In this document: positions 3,661-44,032 of the stretch, one piece after another
How positions within the stretch are numbered: position 1 is the stretch's first letter
Layout: each line of letters starts with the position of its first letter
Origin: a virus
Lineage: Duplodnaviria; Heunggongvirae; Uroviricota; Caudoviricetes
Reading direction: 5' to 3' (one strand)
Virus record (IMG/VR): IMGVR_UViG_2740892015_000005
Location: 1 to 44,032 of that record
DNA: 44,032 nucleotides
The notes under the pieces: model-generated
What the model saw: only the letters and a program-made list of their open reading frames with translations
Told to the model about the DNA's origin: nothing
The model's database searches: none
Translations under genes and position numbers: made by a program

Positions 3661-3813
3661 TAAGCCTCCTCCGTCTGTAAAATACGATCCACTGGCCGGA
3701 TCGTTCCGCAAAAAAGCCAGCACGCTCCGGTCCCGCATTGTTATGGATGCATGACTCCTGGATGGGTGCTGGCATATGATGTCCATGCAGGTGTAGGTTT
3801 TGTAACCTGTTGA

Positions 3814-5118
3814 CTATGCTTGTTTAATTACATCCGATCCCACAGCGTGGGGCATGGATGGGGCAAACTCACTCAATTTCTGGTTTAAAATGGATACCTG
3901 ATCCTGATTGTTTTCTGCCATCCACGATCCGTAAACGCGATAAACCATCTGAGCATCAGAGTGTCCCATTTGCTTCGCGATGAAGTTAGGGTTAGCTCCA
4001 GCGGTCAAAGACCAACATGCATAAGTGTGCCTGGACTGATATGCTTTGCGGTAGCGAATCCCGGCGCGTCGCATTGCAGTTTCCCATGACTGATTAATCG
4101 ACCCAACTGCATAATGGTGCCCGGCAAGGCCATTACGCGTAACGATTTGCGGATTGAAAACAAAAGTGCACGGATGCATTTCAGTTCGACCATACTCACG
4201 AAGTTTCACTTCAACCTGATACTGCTTACCAAGCCGTGTCATTTCAGCCTGATTCTTAAGCACGTCTATTGCAGGTTGAATAAGGTTGATAACACGGTTT
4301 GTTCCCGCTTCGGTTTTTGGAAGAGTGAACTCTTTCGTTAATGTGTGGTTTCTTCTGATCGTCATTGTCCCAGCCTTCAGGTCTATATCTTCCCATGCCA
4401 GAGAAACCAACTCTCCGTGGCGAACTCCCGTATAAACAGCCAGTGACCACATATTTTTTAATTGCTGATGCTTAAATGCGTTAATCAACCTGACAAATTC
4501 ATCACGGGTTAACGGATCAGGTTCCGTTCGTGATCTCTTCAGTTGCGAAATGGCTGCGAACGGATTTTCTTTGATGTATCCGCTGTCGGCTGCGAACTGA
4601 AACATCCCCGCCATGGTGTTCATGTAGTTATTAACAGTTGGCACGGAACGTCCCTTAATGGGTGTTTTTTGCCCACGTTTCAGAACGTGATATCCGGTCA
4701 GCAAATCCTTTCGTATGAACAGTAGCTCTTCCTGAGTCACAGCAGATGCAAGTCTGTTGCCTCCGATTCGGGGAACCATATTTCTTACAATGGAGCTGTA
4801 ACGCCCCATCGCATTGGTACTGATTTCCAGCTTTTTCAGATCCAGCCATTTCTCAGCCAGGTCTGCGACGGTAATTTCCTTACTTTCCGCACCAAATTTT
4901 CTCAGGTTGGGAGAGTCCGGAAACTGAGCGGCATAGTCGAAATTACCCGTCTTAATGGAAAAACAAACAGATGCTCGTAGCTCGCCAGCTATTTTCCTGT
5001 TTTTTGGTGTATCCGGCACACCGAGACTTTCCCGCACTCGTGTGCCTTTATACATGAACCATATGCGGAGTGATCCGCCATGGTTCTCAACGCCTGTTGG
5101 GTATGCTGTCTTAGCCAT
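3814..5118 (-). CDS. int: Phage integrase (tyrosine recombinase)
   Basis: 434-aa ORF at the prophage edge with a C-terminal tyrosine-recombinase-like region (...HTYACWSL...). It lies next to an excisionase-like gene and marks the left boundary of the phage genes. Confidence 0.85.
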   Translation of the reverse strand: MAKTAYPTGVENHGGSLRIWFMYKGTRVRESLGVPDTPKNRKIAGELRASVCFSIKTGNFDYAAQFPDSPNLRKFGAESKEITVADLAEKWLDLKKLEISTNAMGRYSSIVRNMVPRIGGNRLASAVTQEELLFIRKDLLTGYHVLKRGQKTPIKGRSVPTVNNYMNTMAGMFQFAADSGYIKENPFAAISQLKRSRTEPDPLTRDEFVRLINAFKHQQLKNMWSLAVYTGVRHGELVSLAWEDIDLKAGTMTIRRNHTLTKEFTLPKTEAGTNRVINLIQPAIDVLKNQAEMTRLGKQYQVEVKLREYGRTEMHPCTFVFNPQIVTRNGLAGHHYAVGSINQSWETAMRRAGIRYRKAYQSRHTYACWSLTAGANPNFIAKQMGHSDAQMVYRVYGSWMAENNQDQVSILNQKLSEFAPSMPHAVGSDVIKQA

Positions 5119-10278: not shown

Positions 10279-10476
10279 CTAAATAATTAAATCATATTCT
10301 GATTTGGTTAGTTTATAAGTACCTCCTCTGGTGTAATATGCAAATCTGTCTTTGCTTCCATCAGAATTGTATACCCATCCACCAAATGGAAAGATAGTGT
10401 CTATTTCTCCAATATCTTTTTCACAACTAAATGTCTTTCCATTTTTAGTTGAATATGACTTACCAACTGTCAACAT
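10279..10476 (-). CDS. AT-rich small protein (65 aa), moron-like
   Basis: GAGG Shine-Dalgarno before the ATG; low GC; bracketed by terminator-like hairpins on both sides. Confidence 0.45.
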   Translation of the reverse strand: MLTVGKSYSTKNGKTFSCEKDIGEIDTIFPFGGWVYNSDGSKDRFAYYTRGGTYKLTKSEYDLII

Positions 10477-10497
10477 CTTCGCCTCTGCTGTTTATGC

Positions 10498-10530
10498 CAA
10501 AAATAAAGGCCACCATCAGGCAGCCTTGTT
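10498..10530 (-). terminator. Possible terminator after ral (minus strand)
   Basis: Imperfect hairpin (AGGCTGCC...GGTGGCCT with G-U pairs) followed by TTATTTTT on the minus strand. Confidence 0.35.
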
Positions 10531-10716
10531 TTTCTGTTTACCAAGTTCTCTGGCAATCATTGCCGTCGTTCGTATTGCCCATTTATCGACATATTTCCCA
10601 TCTTCCATTACAGGAAACATTTCTTCAGGCTTAACCATGCATTCCGATTGCAGCTTGCATCCATTGCATCGCTTGAATTGTCCACACCATTGATTTTTAT
10701 CAATAGTCGTAGTCAT
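10516..10716 (-). CDS. ral: Restriction-alleviation protein Ral-like
   Basis: 66-aa product MTTTIDKNQWCGQFKRCNGCKLQSECMV... matches my recollection of lambda Ral almost residue for residue. A 28-aa acidic ORF sits just upstream, as orf28 does in lambda. Confidence 0.6.
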   Translation of the reverse strand: MTTTIDKNQWCGQFKRCNGCKLQSECMVKPEEMFPVMEDGKYVDKWAIRTTAMIARELGKQKNKAA

Positions 10717-10919
10717 ACGGATAGTCCTGGTATTGTTCCATCACATCCTGCGGATGCTCTTCGAACTCTTCAAATTCTTCTTCCATATATCACCTCAAAT
10801 AAGTGGTTTGCTGCCTAATTTCATTTTCTGGCGACCAACACAAGTCACACCCATTTCACTGCGTGGCTTGCGGTAGTAAATACGGTTATTTATGTCATTA
10901 AAAACCAGCGTGAGCGTGG

Positions 10920-11186
10920 TTATTTTTTCTTTCCAAGAGATGGAAGACCTCCAGAATAATCTGGACCACTTGAACGATGCATTTGATACAATATTGCGTT
11001 TTTGTTGGCGTTTAGTGGCTTTGTTGCGAAAGAAATTTTTTCTCGTTTTACATCTCTTATCATCATCAACTCACGTTCTGATGCTTTTGGATGATAATCA
11101 TTGATATGCTTCCATGCTGCCTTGGCGCTGAATTTTCTTCCACATAAAGGGCAATAGCATTTATATGATACTTGTTTGCTAGTCAT
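10920..11186 (-). CDS. Small C2H2-like zinc-finger protein (88 aa)
   Basis: Motif CPLCGRKFSAKAAWKHINDYH (C-x2-C-x12-H-x4-H). Low-GC ORF directly downstream of N. Confidence 0.45.
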   Translation of the reverse strand: MTSKQVSYKCYCPLCGRKFSAKAAWKHINDYHPKASERELMMIRDVKREKISFATKPLNANKNAILYQMHRSSGPDYSGGLPSLGKKK

Positions 11187-11188
11187 TT

Positions 11189-11497
11189 CTATCTCGCCGT
11201 AATTGATTTCATTGACCTGTAACCAGCAGCATACAGTGCAACTTCAGGCAAACAAACGCTTCCGCCATTCGCATCTGTATTTGATTTACTGATGATGCCG
11301 AGTGATATTGCTTTTTCAGAAAGACTTAAACGCTTTCTCGGTTCTTCCTGAACAGCTTCCTCACTGTCTGTGCCGAAGATCGAATCGATGATGTTGCAGA
11401 TGGAATCACGCTCGATAGCCAGCTTTCTGCGCCGCTCATGACGGCGAGTTTTGGCATTTCCTGCAAATGTTGATTTTCCGTACACGATTACCGTCAT
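11189..11497 (-). CDS. N: Antitermination protein N (P22 gene 24 type)
   Basis: N-terminal arginine-rich motif GNAKTRRHERRRKLAIER is the P22 N boxB-binding peptide. GAGGAA Shine-Dalgarno precedes the ATG at 11497; the ORF track's longer 130-aa form is probably an over-extension. Confidence 0.8.
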   Translation of the reverse strand: MTVIVYGKSTFAGNAKTRRHERRRKLAIERDSICNIIDSIFGTDSEEAVQEEPRKRLSLSEKAISLGIISKSNTDANGGSVCLPEVALYAAGYRSMKSITAR

Positions 11498-11616
11498 GAT
11501 GTTTTCCTCATGTGAAATGGCTTTGGTGGTGATGCGCCAGGTGCTGATCTTCTGGTTGCTGTCGTTGCAGCTGCAACTCACATCACCGCCAAACCCATCT
11601 CGTTTGGTATCTGTTT

Positions 11617-11650
11617 GCGCTTTGTCAGCGCCCCATCGAAGTTAAAGAGC
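11617..11650 (-). promoter_or_regulatory. nutL (boxB hairpin plus boxA-like element)
   Basis: Minus-strand GCGCTGACAAAGCGC equals the P22 boxB-left sequence. GGCTCTTTAAC, resembling boxA CGCTCTTTA, lies just upstream in the transcript. Confidence 0.65.
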
Positions 11651-11694
11651 CTGCCAATCTGTTCCGTTTGGCTTCCAGCTTCCTGCTGATGGCT

Positions 11695-11730
11695 AAATAG
11701 TACGATGTGTACTTTATTGAGTCAATACAA
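11695..11730 (-). promoter_or_regulatory. Putative PL promoter with overlapping operator palindrome
   Basis: Minus-strand TTGACT, 17-nt spacer, TACTAT. The palindrome AGTACGATGTGTACT overlaps the -10 region. Coordinates are approximate to within a few bases. Confidence 0.4.
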
Positions 11731-11789
11731 AATGTTCTAAATGCGGTTAGTTTTTTATAACACTTTGTATTTTATTGATTTATATTTTG

Positions 11790-11818
11790 GAAAAAGAAAA
11801 CCCGACGATAAGGTCGGG
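11790..11818 (-). terminator. Terminator downstream of cI (minus strand)
   Basis: CCCGAC-CTTATCG-TCGGG hairpin followed by TTTTCTTTTT on the minus strand. Confidence 0.55.
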
Positions 11819-11850
11819 TTATTGTTGTGTGTTTTAGAGTGGTGAGGCTG

Positions 11851-12510
11851 TTAACTAAATGTCTCTTCAGGCCACTGGCTGGCGATAACTTTCCCTACTA
11901 CGGAACAGCTATCATTGCATGGGATCATTGGATATTGCGGGTTTAGTGGTTGTAGGAACACCTGACCGCTATCCCTGATCAGTTTCTTGAAGGTAAACTC
12001 GTCACCACCAAGTCTGGCTATGCAGAAATCACCTGGCTCAACAGCCTGCTCAGGGTCAACGAGAATTAACATCCCGTCAGGAAAGCTTGGCTTGGATCCT
12101 GTTGGTGCGGTCATGGAATTACCTTCAACTTCAAGCCAAAACGCACAATCACTGGCTTTTTTGGTTGTGCTGACCCATCTCTCCGCATCACCTTTGGTAA
12201 AGGTTCTAAGCTCAGGCGAGAACATCCCGGCCTGAACATGAGAAAAAACAGGGTACTCATATTGTTTTTTAACGGGGGCAGATGAGTATTCGCCAACAGG
12301 TGAAAATGTACCGTCGTGGTTGAATGAGACGTTATCAATACCAAGGTATTTAAACACCACACCAATCTCGTCAAGAGATGGATGACGAGATCCGCGCAAC
12401 CAGTGACCAATTCCACCCTGCGTCATACCAAGCTCTTCAGCTAACTTCTCTTGAGTTATGCCGAGTTCTTTCATTCTGGATCTAGCCAGTTCATACCATT
12501 TCATTTTCAT
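11851..12510 (-). CDS. cI: CI-type prophage repressor (HTH N-terminal domain plus LexA/S24-like C-terminal domain)
   Basis: The C-terminal roughly 130 aa ([39 protein letters not shown]...) is near-identical to the lambda cI C-terminal domain as I recall it. The N-terminal HTH domain is different. AAGGA Shine-Dalgarno precedes the ATG at 12510 (MKMKWYEL...). Confidence 0.9.
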
Positions 12511-12567
12511 ATCCTTATTATTACGCTCTGTACTAAAACCATCCATGCACAAGATGTATTTTTTTGT

Positions 12568-12596
12568 TTGCATTCCAAAAGTACATATCGTATTAT
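12568..12596 (+). promoter_or_regulatory. Putative PR promoter / OR operator region
   Basis: TTGCAT, 17-nt spacer, TATTAT upstream of cro. AGTACATATCGTATT resembles the OL palindrome and overlaps the -10. Confidence 0.45.
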
Positions 12597-12621
12597 TGTT
12601 TCATGGTTACTATGGAGGGCA

Positions 12622-12838
12622 TATGAGCAACCTACGAAAATATCGAGAGTCACTGAATATCTCTCAAACAACACTTGCTAAGGCGGTTGGATGCACACAG
12701 GGAGCTATCGGACATTGGGAATCTGGTCGTCGCTTCCCAGACCTTAAAACATGCCGTGCTCTTGTTGCGTGCCTAAACAAGTTAGGCGCAAAAGTCAGTC
12801 TTGATGACGTGTTCCCACCGGAACACAAAGCCGCTTAA
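12622..12838 (+). CDS. cro: Cro-like HTH repressor
   Basis: 72-aa XRE-type HTH protein (LNISQTTLAKAVGCTQGAIGHWESG) transcribed divergently from cI. GGAGGG Shine-Dalgarno precedes the ATG at 12622. Confidence 0.8.
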
Positions 12839-12848
12839 TAAGCGGATC

Positions 12849-12883
12849 CGCTCTTTATCAATCTGCACCGCCGACAACGCGGT
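12849..12883 (+). promoter_or_regulatory. nutR (boxA CGCTCTTTA plus boxB hairpin)
   Basis: CGCTCTTTA at 12849..12857, followed by ACCGCCGACAACGCGGT, which matches the P22 boxB-right hairpin. Confidence 0.7.
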
Positions 12884-12947
12884 AACTAATTAATCACTCA
12901 TCGAAAGATGAGTATTAGTGATTATTTACCTATGGAAATAGTAAGAA

Positions 12948-13244
12948 ATGGAACAAACAAGTTACAGCAAACTATCACAGCGCGACGTTGATCGCGCAGA
13001 AACAGATTTACTCATCAACCTGTCAACGCTTACCCAGCGCGGTCTGGCAAAGATGATTGGCTGTCATGAATCGAAGATCAGTCGTACCGACTGGCGGTTT
13101 ATTGCTTCGGTCTTGTGTGCTTTCGGAATGGCATCAGACATCAGTCCGATTAGCAGGGCTTTTAAGTATGCGCTTGATGGACTCACCAATAAAAAACGCC
13201 CGGCGGCAACCGAGCGTTCTGATCAAATACAAATGGAATTTTAA
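12948..13244 (+). CDS. cII: CII transcriptional activator
   Basis: C-terminus LTNKKRPAATERSDQIQMEF is near-identical to the lambda CII C-terminus (ILTNKKRPAATERSEQIQMEF); central HTH region. Confidence 0.8.
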   Translation: MEQTSYSKLSQRDVDRAETDLLINLSTLTQRGLAKMIGCHESKISRTDWRFIASVLCAFGMASDISPISRAFKYALDGLTNKKRPAATERSDQIQMEF

Positions 13245-13541: not shown

Positions 13542-14489
13542 ATGAGCAATACAGCAAAAATCTACGATTTCAGCGCCGCACACGAGCGCAGGAGCAACAG
13601 GATGGAGAACCAGAAAACTGGTTACATTCCGTTGTACCGGAGCATTCTGAAACAGTCATGGGCGAAAGATGTTTATCTTCGCACCCTGTGGGAAAACCTT
13701 CTCCTGAATGCTGCCAGAAAGCCATACAAAGCGAATTTCAAAGGTCATGAATGGCATCTGCAACCCGGTCAACTGGTTGTGACAGCAGCTGATTTAGGTC
13801 TTCAGTTATGCGACAGGCATGGCAAGCCGGCAAGCCGTGATCAGGTTGAGCGGATGCTTCAGGTTTTTGTGAAAGAGGGGATGATCTCCATTGATGGAGA
13901 GAAGCAAAAAGGTCGTGTGATCACCATCACAAATTACCATGAATATGCTCAAAAAATGGACGATTCACCCGCACATGAAGCCGCACAAACAACCGCACAT
14001 GAAGCCGCACATGATGAAGCCAGTAATGGCGCGGCTTTCAGCGTACATGCCACACATGAAAGCGCACATGAAGCCGCACAAACAACCGCACATCATGAAC
14101 AAGAAGGTATTAACAAGAATATAAATAATACCCCCCTACCCCCCAATGGGGGAGGCGATGGGCAGGTTAAACCTGAACGTCGCAAGGCAGAACGAATCGA
14201 CTACGAATCCTTCCTGAACGCCTACAACACCGAAGTCGGTGACAGACTGCCACACGCTGTTGCGGTCAACGAGAAACGAAAACGCCGCCTGAAGAAAATC
14301 ATCCCGCAACTGAAAACGCCAAACGTTGACGGTTTCAGAGCGTATGTCAGGGCGTTTGTGCATCAGGCTAAGCCGTTTTACTTCGGAGACAACGACACGG
14401 GCTGGACGGCCGATTTTGATTACCTGCTGAGGGAAGACTCGTTAACGGGAGTTCGGGAAGGGAAGTTTGCAGACAGGGGGATTGCATGA
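13542..14489 (+). CDS. Replication initiation protein (O-like, helicase-loader-interacting type)
   Basis: N-terminus [10 protein letters not shown] resembles lambda O (MTNTAKILNF). Internal iterons lie within the gene; it is immediately upstream of, and overlapping, a DnaB-like helicase gene. Confidence 0.7.
13960..14160. repeat. Putative replication origin: iterons, AT-rich tract and GC palindrome inside the O-like gene
   Basis: At least five copies of about 12 bp (CGCACATGAAGC variants), then an AT-rich stretch (AAGAATATAAATAATA), then CCCCCCAATGGGGG. Confidence 0.55.
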
Positions 14490-15862
14490 GACAGGATATC
14501 GAAGCGAGCGTTATCGGTGGCCTGCTGATTGGTGGATTAACTCCAACCGCCAGCGACGTTCTGGCAACGCTGGAGCCGGAAGCGTTTTCAATTCCGCTCT
14601 ACCGGAAAGCCTTCGAGGTTATCCGCAAGCAGGCGCGAAACAGAAACCTAATCGACGCACTGATGGTTGCCGAGGCGTGCGGAGAGGAGCATTTCACGTC
14701 AATCCTGATGACCAGCAAAAACTGCCCGAGTGCCGCAAACCTGAAGGGATATGCCGGAATGGTCGCGGATAACTATCACCGCCGTCTGGTGCTGGAAATC
14801 ATGGATGAAATGCGTGAACCAATTCAGAGCGGAACCATCGACGCATCGAGTCAGGCGATGGATGAACTTGTAAAACGTCTCTCAGCCATCAGAAAGCCCC
14901 GTGACGAGGTAAAACCTGTACGGTTAGGGGAAATCATTACTGACTACACTGACACGCTTGACAGGCGTCTGAGGAACGGAGAAGAGTCAGATACCCTGAA
15001 GACCGGAATCGAAGAACTTGATGCCATCACCGGAGGGATGAACGCGGAAGACCTGGTGATTATCGCTGCTCGTCCTGGTATGGGGAAAACCGAGCTGGCG
15101 CTGAAGATTGCCGAAGGCGTTGCAAGCCGCGTTATTCCTGGTTCTGACGTCCGGCGCGGGGTATTGATTTTCTCAATGGAAATGAGCGCATTGCAGATTG
15201 CAGAGCGAAGCATTGCCAACGCCGGGAGAATGTCGGTTAGCGTGCTGCGAAATCCTGCATCGATGGATGACGAGGGCTGGGCACGTGTTGCTAACGGCAT
15301 GAGTCAGCTTGCGGATTTGGATGTATGGGTAGTCGATGCCTCGCGGTTATCGGTCGAAGAAATACGCTCAATCGCAGAACGGCACAAACAGGAAAATCCA
15401 AACCTGTCACTCATCATGGCGGATTATCTTGGCCTGATTGAGAAGCCGAAAGCAGATCGCAACGACCTCGCAATTGCTCACATCTCCGGAAGCCTTAAGG
15501 CGATGGCGAAAGACCTGAAAACGCCTGTTATCTCCCTGAGTCAGCTTTCACGCGATGTTGAGAAGCGACCAAACAAACGCCCGACAAACGCAGATTTGCG
15601 TGATTCAGGAAGCATTGAGCAGGACGCAGACTCAATCATCATGCTCTATCGGGAAGCGGTATATGACGAGAACAGTAGCGCCGCGCCATTTGCTGAAATC
15701 ATTGTGACGAAAAACCGTTTTGGCTCGCTTGGTACGGTTTACCAGCGGTTCTGTAACGGACACTTTGTTGCATGTGACCAGGATGAAGCCAGACAGATTT
15801 GCACAGCATCAAATGCACCTGCTGCGCGTGGCAGACGATATGCACAAGGGGCGGACGTATGA
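14486..15862 (+). CDS. DnaB-type replicative helicase (phage-encoded)
   Basis: Walker A GMGKT, RecA-like core and DnaB-type C-terminal motifs ([13 protein letters not shown]..., IIMLYRE). Confidence 0.9.
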
Positions 15863-15940
15863 CCATCTACATCACTGAGCTAATAGCATGGTTATCGTTA
15901 CTAATGGTTCTTACTGTATATATTATTAAGTATATTCTTT

Positions 15941-16552
15941 ATGCGAATAAAAAAACTAATTGATCACGATGAGCTTCTGTCAACATTATCATATGACTCA
16001 GAAACAGGAATATTTAAATGGCTAAAAACAAATTCAGTAGTAAGAGTAAAAGGTAGTATTGCTGGAGGTGTTAGTGGTGGTTATATATGCATTAGCATAA
16101 ATAATGTTTTGTATTATGCGCATAGACTTGCTTGGTTCTATGTATACAAAAAATGGCCTCCTAAGTTTATTGATCATGTAAATGGGAACAGACTTGACAA
16201 TAGGATTTCAAATCTAAGACTGGCAACAGAAGAGCAGAATGCAAGAAACATTGTAGGGAATAGATTAAACACATCCGGTGCAATTGGAGTGTCTTGGTAT
16301 AAGCCAACTGGCAGGTGGAAGTCTTATGTTGGTTATAAAAATAAGACAATATCGTTAGGGTATTTCGATAGCAAAGAAGATGCAGCATTCATAGCAGCAC
16401 TAGCAAGAAAGAAACTATATGGAACTTATGCGAGTAAAGCACTTAATTGCGAGCATGAGCTTTTATCTCAATTTAATAATGATGAGGATAAACTTGCGGA
16501 ATATCTTAAGGAAAAATCTAAAAGGACTCGAAAGCGTGTTAAAAACAGATAA
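15941..16552 (+). CDS. HNH homing endonuclease (HNH plus AP2-like domain)
   Basis: Motifs YAHRLAW...IDHVNGNRLDNRISNLRLAT (HNH) and GVSWYKPTGRWKSYV (AP2-like). Strongly AT-rich and followed by its own terminator. Confidence 0.8.
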   Translation: MRIKKLIDHDELLSTLSYDSETGIFKWLKTNSVVRVKGSIAGGVSGGYICISINNVLYYAHRLAWFYVYKKWPPKFIDHVNGNRLDNRISNLRLATEEQNARNIVGNRLNTSGAIGVSWYKPTGRWKSYVGYKNKTISLGYFDSKEDAAFIAALARKKLYGTYASKALNCEHELLSQFNNDEDKLAEYLKEKSKRTRKRVKNR

Positions 16553-16583
16553 AGGCCTGCTGGTAATCGCAGGCCTTTTTATT
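16552..16583 (+). terminator. Rho-independent terminator
   Basis: AGGCCTGC-TGGTAATC-GCAGGCCT hairpin followed by TTTTTATTT. Confidence 0.65.
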
Positions 16584-16599
16584 TGGGGGAGAGGGAAGT

Positions 16600-16926
16600 G
16601 TGGCTGACTGGCAAATTCCAATCATCATTCTTGCCGGAGCTTCGCTGGTTGCTGGCTTTATCCTTCTGAAAAAGCATAAAGACCGTGATCAAAAAGTCGA
16701 AGTTCTCTATGGGTATCCAGCGAACAGCACAACATGGCTGACCATTTACCACTACCGAAAATCAGGCCGCTGGGTATTCGAATGGGATGATCTGTTCGCT
16801 GAAAAGCGACCAAAGTCATGGGGAGACATCAGCGAATGCGTGATGTTTGAAGAAAGAAAATCCGGCGCAACCCGAGAAGAGTTTAACGAAGCGTGGGCGC
16901 GATTAAGTGAGAGAGGGTATTTGTGA
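16600..16926 (+). CDS. Hypothetical nin-region protein with N-terminal transmembrane helix (GTG start)
   Basis: GGGGGAGAGGGAAG Shine-Dalgarno before GTG; hydrophobic N-terminus IPIIILAGASLVAGFILL. Confidence 0.45.
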   Translation: MADWQIPIIILAGASLVAGFILLKKHKDRDQKVEVLYGYPANSTTWLTIYHYRKSGRWVFEWDDLFAEKRPKSWGDISECVMFEERKSGATREEFNEAWARLSERGYL

Positions 16927-17123
16927 GCAAGTACGAAAAATTAGATCAAAACATTCTTTCAATGCTGAGTGAAAGACCAACACCTGTTTTTGATATCTGG
17001 CTTAAATGGCGGAGCAATGGAATGTATATCGAAACCATCGATCGCCGTATGCAATACCTGAGAAAGAAAGGGCTTGTTGCAAATGTGCGTGGGAAGGGTT
17101 GGGTGAAAATTAACCTGTCATAA
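16923..17123 (+). CDS. Hypothetical nin-region protein (66 aa)
   Basis: Start overlaps the preceding stop; basic small protein. Confidence 0.4.
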   Translation: MSKYEKLDQNILSMLSERPTPVFDIWLKWRSNGMYIETIDRRMQYLRKKGLVANVRGKGWVKINLS

Positions 17124-40449: not shown

Positions 40450-41379
40450 ATGAAAAGTATAGCAACAGCAGTATCTACTATCAACGTGCCATTCCACGGC
40501 GCAGAGCTTTATGTCGTCAATCACAACGGTGAGCCGTACACCCCAATGAAACCTATCGTTGAAGGTATGGGTATGGATTGGGCTTCACAGTTTACGAAAA
40601 TAAAGCAACGGTTTAAAACCTCCATTGTGAAAATCACAATGCAGCTTCCTGGTGATGAACAGTGCCGTGAGATTATTTGTTTGGCACTTCGCAAACTTGC
40701 TGGCTGGCTGCAAACCATCAGTCCAAACAAAGTCCGCCCTGAAATCCGCGACAAGGTAATCCAGTATCAGGAAGAGTGTGACGATGTGCTATACGAGTAC
40801 TGGACTAAAGGCCATGTAGTTAACCCACGCAAAGCTAAAAAGGCGTTGCCGGGTAAAATCACCACTGAACAGCAGGAAGCCATTAAACAACTCGTCATGA
40901 GTCGCGGTCAGTCTCTGCCAAAGGAAAAACAGGCTAAGGCGATGATCACCATGTGGTCGTCACTGAAATCCCATTTTGGATGTTCATACAAAGAAATCAG
41001 TGAGGAGCAGTTTACCGAAGCACTGTCACTTGCAGCTCGAGTTCCGCTTGAAGGTGAGTTCATTGGCAAACAAGAGAAGAAAACCAACGAGCTTTCTGCA
41101 AAAGAAGCAAACAGCCTTGTATGGCTATGGGATTATGCCAACCGCTCACAGGCATTATTCCGCGAACTGTATCCGGCATTAAAACAAATTCAATCGAACT
41201 ATTCCGGCAGATGCTACGACTACGGTCATGAATTCTCGTATGTTATCGGAATGGCGAGAGACGTTTTAATCAATCACACACGAGATGTTGATATCAATGA
41301 GCCAGACGGACCAACGAATATTTCCGCATGGATGAGACTTAAGAATAAAGAATTACCTCCTTCAGTACATAACTACTGA
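40450..41379 (+). CDS. ant: Antirepressor (P22 Ant-like)
   Basis: Position downstream of arc; 309 aa (P22 Ant is about 300 aa); N-terminal segment [32 protein letters not shown] fits the P22 antirepressor N-domain pattern. Confidence 0.65.
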
Positions 41380-41397
41380 CAGATAACCAACGCAACG

Positions 41398-41423
41398 ACC
41401 CAGCTTCGGCTGGGTTTTTTTAT
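41398..41423 (+). terminator. Rho-independent terminator after ant
   Basis: ACCCAGC-TTCG-GCTGGGT hairpin followed by TTTTTTT. Confidence 0.65.
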
Positions 41424-41557
41424 GCCCAAAATTCACCGCAGCAACTAAGCGGCGATGGCCTTGATGGATAGCACTACACAAAAAGTGTAGTGCAAAAAGC
41501 AAACAAATACTCACCGTAGCTACGCTGCGGCGATTCATTGTATCTGGAGCAAATTAA

Positions 41558-44032
41558 ATGACAGACATTACAGCCAATGTTGTGGTCAGCATGCCTTCGC
41601 AACTCTTCACTATGGCTCGTTCTTTTAAAGCCGTAGCCAATGGCAAAATTTATATCGGTAAAATTGACACTGACCCGGTAAATCCTGAAAACCAGATTCA
41701 GGTTTATGTGGAGAACGAAGACGGTTCTCACGTCCCTGTTTCGCAACCAATCATCATTAACGCTGCTGGATATCCGGTATATAACGGACAGATTGCCAAG
41801 TTCGTAACTGTGCAAGGCCATTCTATGGCTGTTTATGATGCATATGGTGCACAGCAGTTTTATTTTCCTAATGTGCTGAAGTATGACCCCGATCAGCTAC
41901 GGCCGCAATTAGAAGATCCAGATGGCGCTAAAAAATATCCTGAGTTGCAGATGGCACGATGGAGAGATTGTGGAGATGTTAGAGGGTGGGGAGCAAAAAT
42001 AGATGGGGTAACAGATGATTCAGATGCTTTTATTAAAGCTTTAAACTCTGGAAGGTCGGTTATAACAATTCCTGAAGGAATATGCATCATCAAGAAGAAT
42101 ATTAACATTCCGGAAGGATGTTCACTGGTTGGATCTGGCATTGATTATTGGGACACATATAGACCAGCGCCTGAAAGATTATTAAAAAGTTGGAGTAAAG
42201 GAACCCATCTTGTATTTACTGGTGATGGAGAAAAAAACAAATATTTTTTTAACATCTCTAATGAAAGACCAGCTAAAATTGTTGAAGGGATATCTTGTAA
42301 GTTCACTGAGTTTACGAATGAAGATTCTGTAGGTGTTACTCCTGCTACACCAAAAGCCATGAGCGTAGCTGTTAGTATCAACAGGGCATCACAGTTACGC
42401 AATCTGAGAATAATGGTAAGTAAAAATGGTATTGAAGGATACAATAACCCTGATTCTTATTCATTGGGTGATAACTGGGATATAGGGTTGCATGTATACG
42501 ATAGCTGTGATTCAGTTATTGATAACGTACAGATTGTCGGCTATTGGAGGGTAAAAGGACTACTACTGACAGAAAATGACGGGAGCCTTTCAATGAAGGG
42601 AAATCCTGAAAAAACGCACTTTAATAACGTTTATGTCCAGTCAGGAATCGCGATAAGGAATAGCCCTCAGATTGATCTTGTAAGTAATACTGAAAGCTCA
42701 GTGACATTTAAACATAAAAAGTCGATGAGAATAACTTCAGTTAAACAGTTTAAAATTGCTGGCAGTGAATCAGTATATACGTATTCAGATGCATCATTTG
42801 ATGGAACTAACATCACACTATCTGGTATTTCTCCTGAAATACAAGGTACAATAAGTGTAATCAGGTTTCCGTCAATTGGTAATAATTTTAGCGGGACTGT
42901 TTTTGAGAATACAGTAGCCACTACTCTTGATCATACATCAGGTAAGCCATCAGAATACTTTGGCCTTCCTGCATCCTTTGCATTAGAGGTTGATGGTTTC
43001 CCTGTTCGTAATTTAAGGTTTGATAAATTCAAAGCTCAAACAACATTTGATAAAGGAAATTGCATTTTTGGTGATTGCCGTGATGTTAAAATAACATCAT
43101 CTGAGTTTGAAAATGGAATTATGATTGCGTATAACCTGACCGAGACTCAGGGTTATACAGGAAATCTTAGATTTTTTGCTTCTGATCTTCAGAGCAGCGT
43201 TAACACAAGTGAGTTTAAACCAAGAGACGCATTTGTAGACAATAGACAAATAAAAACGGAGTTTACTGATGGTTCGTTCATTATAAAGAACTGGAGGCCT
43301 ACAGATACAAAAATACAATGGTCGTCTGGAGTAGATGCTATTGTTCTTAGAGAGTCACCTGACGAACAATCAAACGGAAATATTTACGGGTATCACATTG
43401 ATGGTAAAAGATGGATTAATGTTAGTGGATATAACAAAGATATAAATATTTCATCAAGAAACTTAAGCGTAAAAAACCATGGTGATGACTCTGCAGTTAT
43501 TAATATATTCGGCGACTCTGGAAATATTGCCATTAAAGGTAATTTTTCACCAATTATTGATAACAGCAAATCTCTTGGTGCACCATCATTTAGATGGGCT
43601 CAGATTTATTCTGCATCCGGGACTATAAGCACATCAGATGAAACACTTAAAACAATATATGACATTACTCAGGCAGAGCGTGATGCTGCGCTGGAAATAA
43701 AGGGAATTATATGCAAGTTCAGGTTTAATGAGTCGATTAATTTTAAAGGATTGGAGTTATCAAGGTATCATTTTGGAGTTGGCGCTCAAACCGTAGGAGA
43801 TATTCTTAGAAAGCATGGTTTAAATCCTGAGCAATATGCTTTTTGGTGTTACGATGAATGGCCAGACGTATGGGATGAAGAGGTGATAACTGAAGAGAGC
43901 ACAGATCCTGATACAGGTGAGAAAATTTATTCTCAATATAAAACAGGAAATATGATTCTTGTAAAAAAAGCAGGTGGACGCTACGGAATTCGTTATGACG
44001 AATTGGCTATGTTTATATTAATGGCAATGTAG
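41558..44032 (+). CDS. Tailspike: P22-type head-binding domain, beta-helix depolymerase-like domain and C-terminal intramolecular chaperone domain
   Basis: The first roughly 115 aa ([50 protein letters not shown]...VLKYDPDQ) are highly similar to the P22 gp9 N-terminus. This is followed by a [18 protein letters not shown] pectate-lyase-type motif and a low-GC body. The C-terminal region ([15 protein letters not shown]...) resembles S74 auto-cleaving chaperone domains. Confidence 0.85.

Follow-up and report, generated by a model that had tools for sequence, protein, structure and literature searches.

The endosialidase tailspike SiaK1 of the P22-like phage CUS-3 (ABQ88383.1, 981 aa) combines a P22-type head-binding domain with a C-terminal chaperone of the Peptidase S74 type, and the literature presents it as an exchange of modules behind a P22 N-terminus (PMC5380687). 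The tailspikes P22 gp9, Sf6 gp14 and HK620 gp9 consist of a head-binding domain and a receptor-binding body folded as a right-handed beta-helix. To our knowledge, classical P22-family tailspikes have no released C-terminal chaperone. Such chaperones are found in the K1F endosialidase (3GW6), T5 pb1 (4UW8), phi29 gp12 (3GUD) and Klebsiella phage Kp7 gp51 (7Y5S). The autoproteolysis of T5 pb1 implicates Asp1239, Arg1250, Thr1263, Ser1264 and Lys1269 (PMC4690869), and a dyad of Ser and Lys at +5 is likewise described in PMC3742443.

The window analysed here covers positions 1 to 44,032 of the virus record IMGVR_UViG_2740892015_000005, and its last gene encodes a tailspike (Table 1). Like SiaK1, this gene is placed after ant. 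The two proteins are 88% identical across the head-binding domain and junction (aa 1-163), and both end in a stalk and S74 chaperone of one kind, in which the identity is 34% (aa 661-816) and CUS-3 has the motif TSDGTLK. In contrast, the centre of SiaK1 is a sialidase, to which aa 164-660 give no significant alignment, and the tailspike gene of CUS-3 is followed by the capsule-modifying locus neuO. The architecture of a P22 head-binding domain with an S74 chaperone is already known from the CUS-3 tailspike, and at least six other protein clusters join PF09008 to PF13884. The sequence-only reading had considered this combination unusual for P22-type tailspikes; the combination is indeed present, but it is less unusual than this reading implied.

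In the case of P22 gp9, Sf6 gp14 and HK620 gp9, the likeness comprises the head-binding domain (E 1e-45 to 1e-66), the right-handed beta-helical body and the gene position, whereas the beta-helices show no detectable sequence kinship beyond about aa 120-139, and no S74-type C-terminal match to these three proteins was found. The four chaperones listed above resemble aa 663-821 in sequence and fold, and share with it the Ser/Lys +5 pair, the Thr, and the Arg and Asp of the stalk. They differ in their cargo (a sialidase propeller, a 'bullet' domain or other beta-helices), the identity is only 20-35%, and the processing shown for those four proteins is predicted here from sequence.

The tailspike gene and its prophage

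The gene is a single intact open reading frame with an ATG start, and the window ends with the three bases of its stop codon. The gene for WP_021533500.1 in the E. coli RefSeq genome NZ_OZ040490.1, annotated as "phage tailspike protein", has the same sequence (100% identity); the window and this genome differ by only 2 substitutions across 10.5 kb. A difference had been suspected at the antirepressor gene, which is split by PGAP, but the reading frame is intact and 309 aa long in both. Upstream of the tailspike lie the integrase, the terminase, the P22 portal, the P22 coat, a gp10-like protein (Phage_stabilise) and the P22 antirepressor, as in P22, and the annotation of the identical RefSeq locus adds ejection (DNA transfer) proteins and Arc/Mnt-type (Arc-family) regulators. 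The tailspike follows the ejection proteins and the mnt/arc/ant region, the placement of P22-like genomes, and about 325 nt separate its stop codon from the repeat bounding the prophage. The hairpin in front of the gene is a pattern match only, obtained from a consensus scan of the identical RefSeq locus (L001, 7840-7859) and from reading of the sequence. A search of NCBIfam with the tailspike matched zero models. Taken as a whole, the data are best explained by a host-recognition (receptor-binding) tailspike of a complete P22-like E. coli prophage, which we consider probable.

Table 1. Features of the tailspike locus (positions in the window; aa numbering of the tailspike)
Feature	Position	Strand	Remarks
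Terminator-like hairpin, GACCCAGCTTCGGCTGGGTT then T run	41397..41416	+	between antirepressor and tailspike genes
Shine-Dalgarno-like GGAG	41546..41549	+	8 nt 5' of ATG; read from sequence
Tailspike gene	41558..44032	+	824 aa, 91.6 kDa; final gene of P22-like prophage
P22-type head-binding (tail-attachment) domain, aa 1-113	41558..41896	+	PF09008; Sf6 gp14 and P22 gp9 structures
Junction module, aa 114-192	41897..42133	+	linker helix, cap and first beta-helix coils; PF12708 at aa 141-196
Recently exchanged receptor-binding block, aa 193-694	42136..43640	+	gene nt 579-2083; epsilon15-like prophage match
Right-handed parallel beta-helix body, aa 196-650	42143..43507	+	presumed glycan-binding or glycan-cleaving domain
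Stalk before cleavage site, aa 650-692	43505..43633	+	contains Asp668 and Arg679; PF12219, alignment with solved relatives
Ser693 codon	43634..43636	+	predicted nucleophile; putative scissile bond Thr692-Ser693; alignment
Intramolecular chaperone (Peptidase_S74 type), aa 693-824	43634..44029	+	15.3 kDa; predicted release after trimer folding
Lys698 codon	43649..43651	+	predicted general base of Ser-Lys dyad (Ser + 5); alignment

The gene is found in a chromosome and not in an isolated phage, and the sole isolated-phage record with the same central block is an 'unverified' contig, as might be expected of a decaying relic in a defective prophage that has lost its functional spike. This is very improbable, since 20 complete genomes (from human, cattle and chicken sources) have the reading frame intact at 98.3-100% identity, the structural genes are intact throughout the prophage, integrase to tailspike, the pN/pS ratio in the shared block described below is 0.38, and a ribosome-binding site and flanking terminator-like hairpins are present.

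N-terminal part of the protein

The Pfam profile Head_binding (PF09008) matches aa 1-113 over its positions 1-113 of 113, with E 2.7e-67 and 224.6 bits (cut-off 24), which places the protein in this family of P22-type tailspikes. Among PDB sequences, Sf6 gp14 (7sg7) is matched over aa 1-120 (E 6.6e-66) and P22 gp9 with E ~1e-50, and no P22-like similarity was found in this search past about aa 139, in agreement with the initial view that only the N-terminal ~115 residues are P22-like. The region of aa 1-113 is ~90-96% identical at the nucleotide level to tailspikes in roughly 1150 E. coli genomes, and most of these matches stop near nt 339 of the gene. A search with aa 1-113 for architectures ending in S74 gave almost only fragments shorter than 200 aa.

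The junction that follows contains a pectate-lyase-superfamily-type motif (aa 145-162), already noticed in the bare sequence and now found to lie within a match to PF12708 (Pect-lyase_RHGA_epim, 28.3 bits versus a cut-off of 27). It is common to the tailspikes of CUS-3 and K1-type prophages as far as gene nt 437, matches aa 220-291 of 9vvr, a solved unrelated tailspike, and is found again, joined to different centres, in spikes of Kayfunavirus, Justusliebigvirus and Phapecoctavirus.

Stalk, chaperone and predicted cleavage

In Pfam, Peptidase_S74 (PF13884) matches aa 693-755 with 21.4 bits, just short of the cut-off of 22, while homologues of the protein score 30-54 bits. With phmmer, aa 663-821 match the solved chaperones 7y5s (E 3e-17), 9vvr (7.5e-15), T5 pb1 4uw8 (6e-13), 6eu4 (9e-12), endoNF 3gw6 (1.6e-10) and phi29 gp12 3gud (8e-7), and a profile of 48 homologues lifts these matches to E 1e-29 to 1e-65, which assigns the region to the Peptidase S74 intramolecular chaperones by sequence. 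The model of this domain has pLDDT values of 84-95. Its best Foldseek match is 3gw6 (E 2.6e-9), 4uw8 is also among the top matches, and 3gud aligns with a TM score of 0.75-0.78, normalised to the target; the S74-like C-terminal domain proposed by the sequence-only reading is thus found at the level of fold as well.

The stalk matches the final 43 positions of PF12219 (End_tail_spike) with 20.4 bits, which does not reach the cut-off of 25, and aligns with the segments that precede the cleavage site in T5 pb1, endoNF and Kp7 gp51. Residues 674-690, including Arg679, have pLDDT values below 50 in the monomer model, and an interdigitated trimeric triple beta-helix in the stalk is therefore predicted from the alignment.

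The proposed Ser/Lys motif, TSDETLK, is located at aa 692-698. Asp668, Arg679, Thr692, Ser693 and Lys698 align identically with Asp1239, Arg1250, Thr1263, Ser1264 and Lys1269 of T5 pb1, so that both members of the dyad, the Thr in front of it and the two stalk residues are found in place. Ser693 is also aligned with the Ser of 7y5s (the T5 pb1 residue is Ala in the 4uw8 mutant). Ser and Lys are each kept in 44 of the 48 homologues, Arg679 in only 30 and Asp668 in only 31.

The spike is predicted to trimerise and to undergo autoproteolytic cleavage. Three chains would fold together, with the S74-type chaperone (aa 693-824) trimerising first and templating the stalk and the beta-helix. The Ser693/Lys698 dyad, aided by Arg679 and Asp668, would then cut Thr692-Ser693, releasing a fragment of 15 kDa and leaving a mature spike of 76 kDa. 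The P22-type head-binding domain (aa 1-113) would plug the trimer into the tail hub, and the beta-helix (aa ~140-650) would bind, and probably cleave, an E. coli surface polysaccharide, and would therefore set the host range.

The C-terminal domain might instead be retained, forming a distal knob or receptor-binding tip of the mature spike. The marginal Pfam score for S74 points in this direction, as does the chaperone itself, only 35% identical to the one carried by the same beta-helix elsewhere. On the other hand, the Ser-Lys dyad, the preceding Thr, the Arg and the Asp are all in register, and the characterised relatives release the domain unless the Ser is mutated (PMC4690869, PMC3742443). 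Retention is accordingly improbable, and release of the chaperone is the preferred reading.

Mosaic joints and the exchanged block

Recombination has assembled the gene from at least four segments: aa 1-113, 114-192, 193-694 and 695-824. A block of 1505 nt is 98.7-98.9% identical, with 19 mismatches and zero gaps, to the tail-fibre gene of unrelated epsilon15-like prophages (L005, L013) and of phage Phi05_1387 B (L004). The boundaries of the block are sharp. In the corresponding epsilon15-like (Uetakevirus-type) protein (WP_001531864.1, 918 aa), aa 193-694 are 97.8% identical (98.7% at the nucleotide level) and the C-terminus is also an S74 chaperone, at aa 758-918, but the N-terminal 210 aa are unrelated, and the flanks of the block, the first beta-helix coils and the chaperone, are only 47% and 35% identical in amino acids. 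The epsilon15-like prophage belongs to another phage lineage and is integrated at another site, adjoining yfgI and guaA. Segment 193-694 was exchanged recently between the two prophages, and the horizontal exchange of a receptor-binding module, at first only suggested, is seen directly in the block.

The 3' joint coincides with the cleavage motif. As far as the cleavage site, two co-resident prophages have the same spike body at 98% identity, whereas their chaperones are only 35% identical, and the recombination joint is at Thr-Ser-Asp of the motif. The chaperone of the present gene is 86-89% identical at the nucleotide level to the 3' end of a gene of phage YDC107_2.

The coding part of aa 120-824 has a GC content of 36.7% (GC3 26.5%), in comparison with 47.3% in the remainder of the window, and no other 2.1-kb stretch of the window has so low a GC content; the AT-rich body described earlier is thereby confirmed in numbers.

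In general, the gene is a clean but ordinary case of the well-known mosaicism of phages, and the understanding of tailspike architecture is unchanged by it. A further-reaching reading, to which we give only tentative weight, is that the locus is a natural chaperone-swap experiment and that its beta-helix represents an uncharacterised glycanase family with a receptor not tied to a single O serotype. If both spikes fold, the S74 chaperone would be essentially independent of its cargo; the conserved cleavage motif would in that case also serve as a linker for recombination, and receptor-binding bodies could move without their own chaperone. The locus gives, at the level of base pairs, the joints of an exchange between two unrelated lineages of temperate E. 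coli phages. Tailspike bodies determine the strains that are open to infection by a phage or prophage, so that cataloguing the exchangeable modules, with their joints mapped, aids the prediction of host range and the engineering of spikes.

Beta-helix body, enzyme type and receptor

The structure prediction, proposed as a check on the beta-helix, was run in silico and shows the right-handed parallel beta-helix (pectate-lyase-like) fold for the body. The central 541 aa have no match among PDB sequences apart from the 9vvr junction, and no sequence relative of known activity was found for the catalytic core. Similarity to an endorhamnosidase of the P22 gp9 type is absent from the beta-helix (the matches to gp9 chains end at about aa 139), as is the sialidase domain of the endosialidases (GH58), of which only the stalk part of PF12219 (positions 118-160 of 160) is matched. 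Across the 48 homologues (31-81% identical), R436, H459, E477, R484, Q494, D509 and E518 are among the invariant residues; E477, D509, E518, R436, H459 and R484 are candidate catalytic residues.

The beta-helix is a putative depolymerase (enzyme). It could also be an adhesin that only binds the glycan, but we regard this as unlikely, as most of the fold neighbours are enzymes or enzymatically active tailspikes and the six invariant candidate residues look more like an active site than a binding groove. The locus points to an uncharacterised beta-helix family as a candidate depolymerase.

Regarding the type of enzyme, it is possible, although rather doubtful, that the spike is a polysaccharide lyase whose substrate is a capsule or exopolysaccharide containing uronic acid (a K antigen or a colanic-acid-like polymer) and not an O-antigen hydrolase. 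The fold neighbours include the K5 lyase 2x3h, RbmB (9ozd) and alginate lyases, the invariant residues include Arg and His, and spikes that bear S74 are often specific for capsules, such as the K1 endosialidases (PMC5380687). However, hydrolases are equally well represented among the fold neighbours. The 29 complete carrier (lysogen) genomes comprise 6 of type O25, 3 of type O15 and 20 of neither, a spread over O types which fits a receptor independent of O serotype, although a lysogen's serotype informs on the receptor only indirectly. A match to PHROG 8280, 'colanic acid degradation', extends over aa 1-368, and phi92 gp150 is a characterised colanic-acid-degrading enzyme (PMC13450770). Colanic acid nevertheless found no support as the target, as the PHROG match is carried mostly by the head-binding domain and phi92 is absent from the 9 phage records with the same central domain.

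Two O antigens were rejected as the sole receptor. An O25-family wzx was found in the near-identical host genome, and one host genome has an O25b-like O-antigen gene content, yet O25 wzx is present in only 6 of the 29 carriers (counted with a chimeric query of the tailspike block and O25 wzx). In the case of O15, strain O15_8X has the O15 cluster, yet O15 wzy is found in only 3 of the 29. A literature search for host data on phage DIJ06P1, which is among the closest phages, found nothing.

The beta-helix family comprises 243 representative clusters, and in other proteins the module of aa 120-824 follows N-termini of the Head_binding, Tail_spike_N, Phage_T7_tail or Phage_tail_fib type.

Domain architecture of the tailspike

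The last gene of the P22-like prophage encodes an uncharacterised mosaic tailspike of an already known type, annotated as a tailspike in RefSeq. The head-binding family PF09008 covers aa 1-113 (E 2.7e-67), and alignment to the structures of Sf6 gp14 and P22 gp9 spans aa 1-120, with none past about aa 139, in agreement with the sequence-only reading that P22 likeness is limited to the N-terminus. The remainder (aa 120-824) is AT-rich as described there, with a GC content of 36.7% (GC3 26.5%) vs 47.3% elsewhere in the window, and is the lowest-GC 2.1-kb stretch there. The 18-residue pectate-lyase-type motif noted earlier lies at aa 145-162, within a PF12708 match at aa 141-196 (28.3 bits, cut-off 27). 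[quoted passage not shown] In a Foldseek search of the PDB, the best match is the endoNF chaperone 3gw6 (E 2.6e-9), followed by T5 pb1 and phi29 3gud (TM 0.75-0.78 on the target); after the chaperones, the remaining matches are beta-helix enzymes. Model and matches thus show both folds on which the earlier proposal depended, the beta-helix and the S74-like domain, a pairing that is common in the viral model library.

The C-terminal chaperone and its predicted cleavage site

Although the PF13884 score of the tailspike is 21.4 (cut-off 22), the proposed S74-like C-terminus is recovered at aa 663-821, which match six solved intramolecular chaperones with E 3e-17 to 8e-7. A profile of 48 homologues matches the solved chaperones with E 1e-29 to 1e-65, and weakly reaches human MYRF. 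The suggested cleavage motif TSDETLK is located at aa 692-698. Because aa 674-690, directly before the cleavage site, have pLDDT below 50 in the model, the putative stalk upstream of this site takes its assignment from the alignment alone; low model confidence is expected where the segment forms an interdigitated trimer in relatives.

T5 pb1 is cut between Thr1263 and Ser1264, with the Ser activated by Lys1269, and the oxyanion hole is provided by Arg1250 of the neighbouring chain, placed by Asp1239, so that cleavage depends on correct folding of the trimer; with S1264A the protein is left uncleaved (PMC4690869). Endosialidases and MYRF are also described as having a Ser/Lys +5 dyad together with an Arg (PMC3742443). 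In HMMER alignments, Thr692, Ser693, Lys698, Arg679 and Asp668 of the tailspike occupy the exact T5 pb1 catalytic positions. Ser693 and Lys698 are each conserved in 44 of the 48 homologues, Thr692 in 43, Asp694 in 42, Asp668 in 31 and Arg679 in 30. The tailspike would be expected to cleave itself at the predicted Thr-Ser site, with computed products of 76.4 kDa (aa 1-692) and 15.3 kDa (aa 693-824).

Exchange of the spike body

Likeness among E. coli tailspike genes stops at a few recurring points. In most of about 1150 genomes the shared part is limited to nt 1 to about 339 of the gene, where the head-binding domain ends (aa 113), and CUS-3 and K1-type prophages have nt 1-437 in common with the tailspike. 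The horizontally exchanged module postulated from the sequence is found at nt 579-2083 (aa 193-694), 98.7-98.9% identical in the gene for the 918-aa tail fibre (WP_001531864.1) of epsilon15-like prophages, with 19 mismatches and zero gaps. The prophage counterpart is annotated 'tail fiber domain-containing protein', and the block matches phage Phi05_1387 B (classified Uetakevirus) at the same level. On either side of the block no nucleotide-level similarity to epsilon15-type genes is detectable. Protein identity is 18% for aa 1-113, 47% for 146-192, 97.8% for 193-694 and 35% for 695-824; the 3' joint falls at the Thr-Ser-Asp cleavage motif, and differences are concentrated in the last dozen residues ahead of it. 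Such a contrast between body and chaperone, with the joint at the cleavage motif, indicates that the mature spike body moved without its chaperone. The main interest lies here, in a body exchanged between two prophage lineages of one host and delimited at base-pair resolution. The 3' end of the gene (nt 2026-2474) is 86-89% identical to a phage YDC107_2 gene.

Among 29 complete genomes with the central module, 16 have it in the P22-type gene only, 9 in the epsilon15-type only, and 4 in both (Combat2C1, E57, ECE170 and NZ_OZ040490.1, the RefSeq genome near-identical to the window, where the second copy lies within the 918-aa tail-fibre gene). Co-residence of both prophage types is an obvious opportunity for exchange, without indicating its direction or place. 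O15_8X, an O15 strain, carries the P22-type tailspike at another chromosomal position, and at guaA an epsilon15-like prophage remnant with a 911-aa tail fibre. Rather than the near-identical block, this fibre represents a diverged relative, with 81.6% nt identity across 70% of the gene.

Known systems and wider relatives

Among described systems the nearest is the endosialidase tailspike of the P22-like phage CUS-3, whose gene occupies the corresponding genome position. The two proteins share 88% identity over residues 1-163 and have a stalk and chaperone of one kind (34% identity, with TSDGTLK as the CUS-3 motif), whereas the catalytic centre is unrelated. In the review literature, CUS-3, HK620, Sf6 and P22 already serve as the classic example of modules exchanged behind a shared N-terminus (PMC5380687). 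PF09008 and PF13884 also occur together in at least six further protein clusters, including a 264-member E. coli cluster and one from Rahnella. The sequence-only reading, confirmed in its observation and supported in its interpretation, therefore overstated how unusual this architecture is for a P22-type tailspike.

Sequences more distantly related to aa 120-824 (40-80% identity) stand behind Head_binding, Tail_spike_N, Phage_T7_tail or Phage_tail_fib N-termini; the isolated phages that have them are Justusliebigvirus SD2 (57-62%) and Vectrevirus DIJ06P1 (46-54%). Since the junction (aa ~120-195) and the chaperone each recur in many further spikes around unrelated centres, a role of these conserved flanks as recombination linkers would fit. 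The family of the central domain (aa 196-650) is small: out of 1.84 billion representatives, 243 clusters match at E <= 1e-3, falling to 60 with a threshold of E <= 1e-30, only 9 phage records contain it, and no solved or characterised sequence relative was found. In one database protein (P0030, 826 aa), a T7-type portal domain (Head-tail_con, aa 7-281) is followed directly by the last two-thirds of the spike module, a fusion that may be an artefact of assembly or gene calling.

Gene and prophage surroundings

The whole P22-like prophage is contained in the window (Table).

Coordinates of the tailspike gene, its prophage and related loci
Feature	Sequence	Position	Strand	Remarks
Integrase gene	window	3814-5118	minus	P22-like prophage
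Large terminase, P22 portal, P22 coat, gp10-like 'stabilisation' protein	window			P22-like prophage
Ejection ('DNA transfer') proteins, Arc-family regulators, P22-type antirepressor, then tailspike	window			P22-like prophage
Antirepressor ORF	window	40450-41379		309 aa
Terminator-like hairpin	window	41397-41416		between antirepressor and tailspike genes
Antisense ORF	window	41474-41821	minus	115 aa, overlaps tailspike start
GGAG	window			8 nt 5' of tailspike ATG
Tailspike ORF	window	41558..44032	+	ATG start, 824 codons, stop is the window's last triplet
171-nt repeat, first copy	window	3773-3943
171-nt repeat, second copy	L001 (NZ_OZ040490.1)	10800-10969		about 325-494 nt past window end
emrE, ybcL, ybcM, then IS200 transposase and fragments	L001 (NZ_OZ040490.1)	10476-13026		just past window
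Tailspike gene	NZ_OZ040490.1	2078244-2080718		100% identity
Second block copy	NZ_OZ040490.1	1403987-1406743 (L013 9001-11757)		adjoins yfgI
O15_8X tail-fibre locus	L010 (NZ_CM182542.1)	14278-17013
Frameshifted O25-family cluster gene	NZ_OZ040490.1	1888754-1889816 (L009 26755-27817)		between GT4 glycosyltransferase and wbbJ

The window differs from NZ_OZ040490.1, in which the gene is labelled 'phage tailspike protein' (WP_021533500.1), by two substitutions across the last 10.5 kb, and the full-length gene is present in 20 of 5426 complete E. coli genomes (98.3-100% identity). The antirepressor ORF (P22_AR_N and P22_AR_C) is unbroken here and in the RefSeq genome, but is split in the RefSeq annotation into a partial pseudogene and a separate CDS. 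The antisense ORF, taken from a mechanical listing and absent from the RefSeq annotation, is probably spurious.

The prophage is flanked, and probably bounded, by a 171-nt direct repeat (97.7% identical) overlapping the integrase gene 3' end and a host ABC-transporter gene 5' end, which probably contains the attachment sites or what is left of an earlier integrase gene. The window has no tRNA gene. The prophage may adjoin older prophage debris, because emrE, ybcL and ybcM are genes of the DLP12 cryptic-prophage region of K-12. No receptor-modifying gene (gtr- or neuO-type) is found 3' of the tailspike, where ~325 nt lead to the repeat and then to these genes.

Catalytic candidates and receptor

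The invariant residues of the central domain include E477, D509, E518, R436, H459, R484 and Q494, plausible candidates for the active site; as a set they would be compatible with hydrolase and lyase alike. An endosialidase was ruled out by PF12219/CUS-3 comparison, and a P22 gp9-type endorhamnosidase by the extent of the gp9 similarity.

The O types of the 29 carriers were tested by chimeric-query searches: 6 have O25 wzx, 3 have O15 wzy and the other 20 have neither gene. As all three situations occur, the receptor does not seem confined to one O type, and would be either a glycan independent of any single O type or an epitope common to several; evidence in favour of colanic acid was not found. 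The O-antigen cluster of NZ_OZ040490.1 is of the O25 family, with rhamnose genes and wbbJ and without fnl genes, an O25b-like gene content. One gene of this cluster is annotated as frameshifted; should it encode the polymerase, polymerised O antigen might be scarce or absent in the strain.
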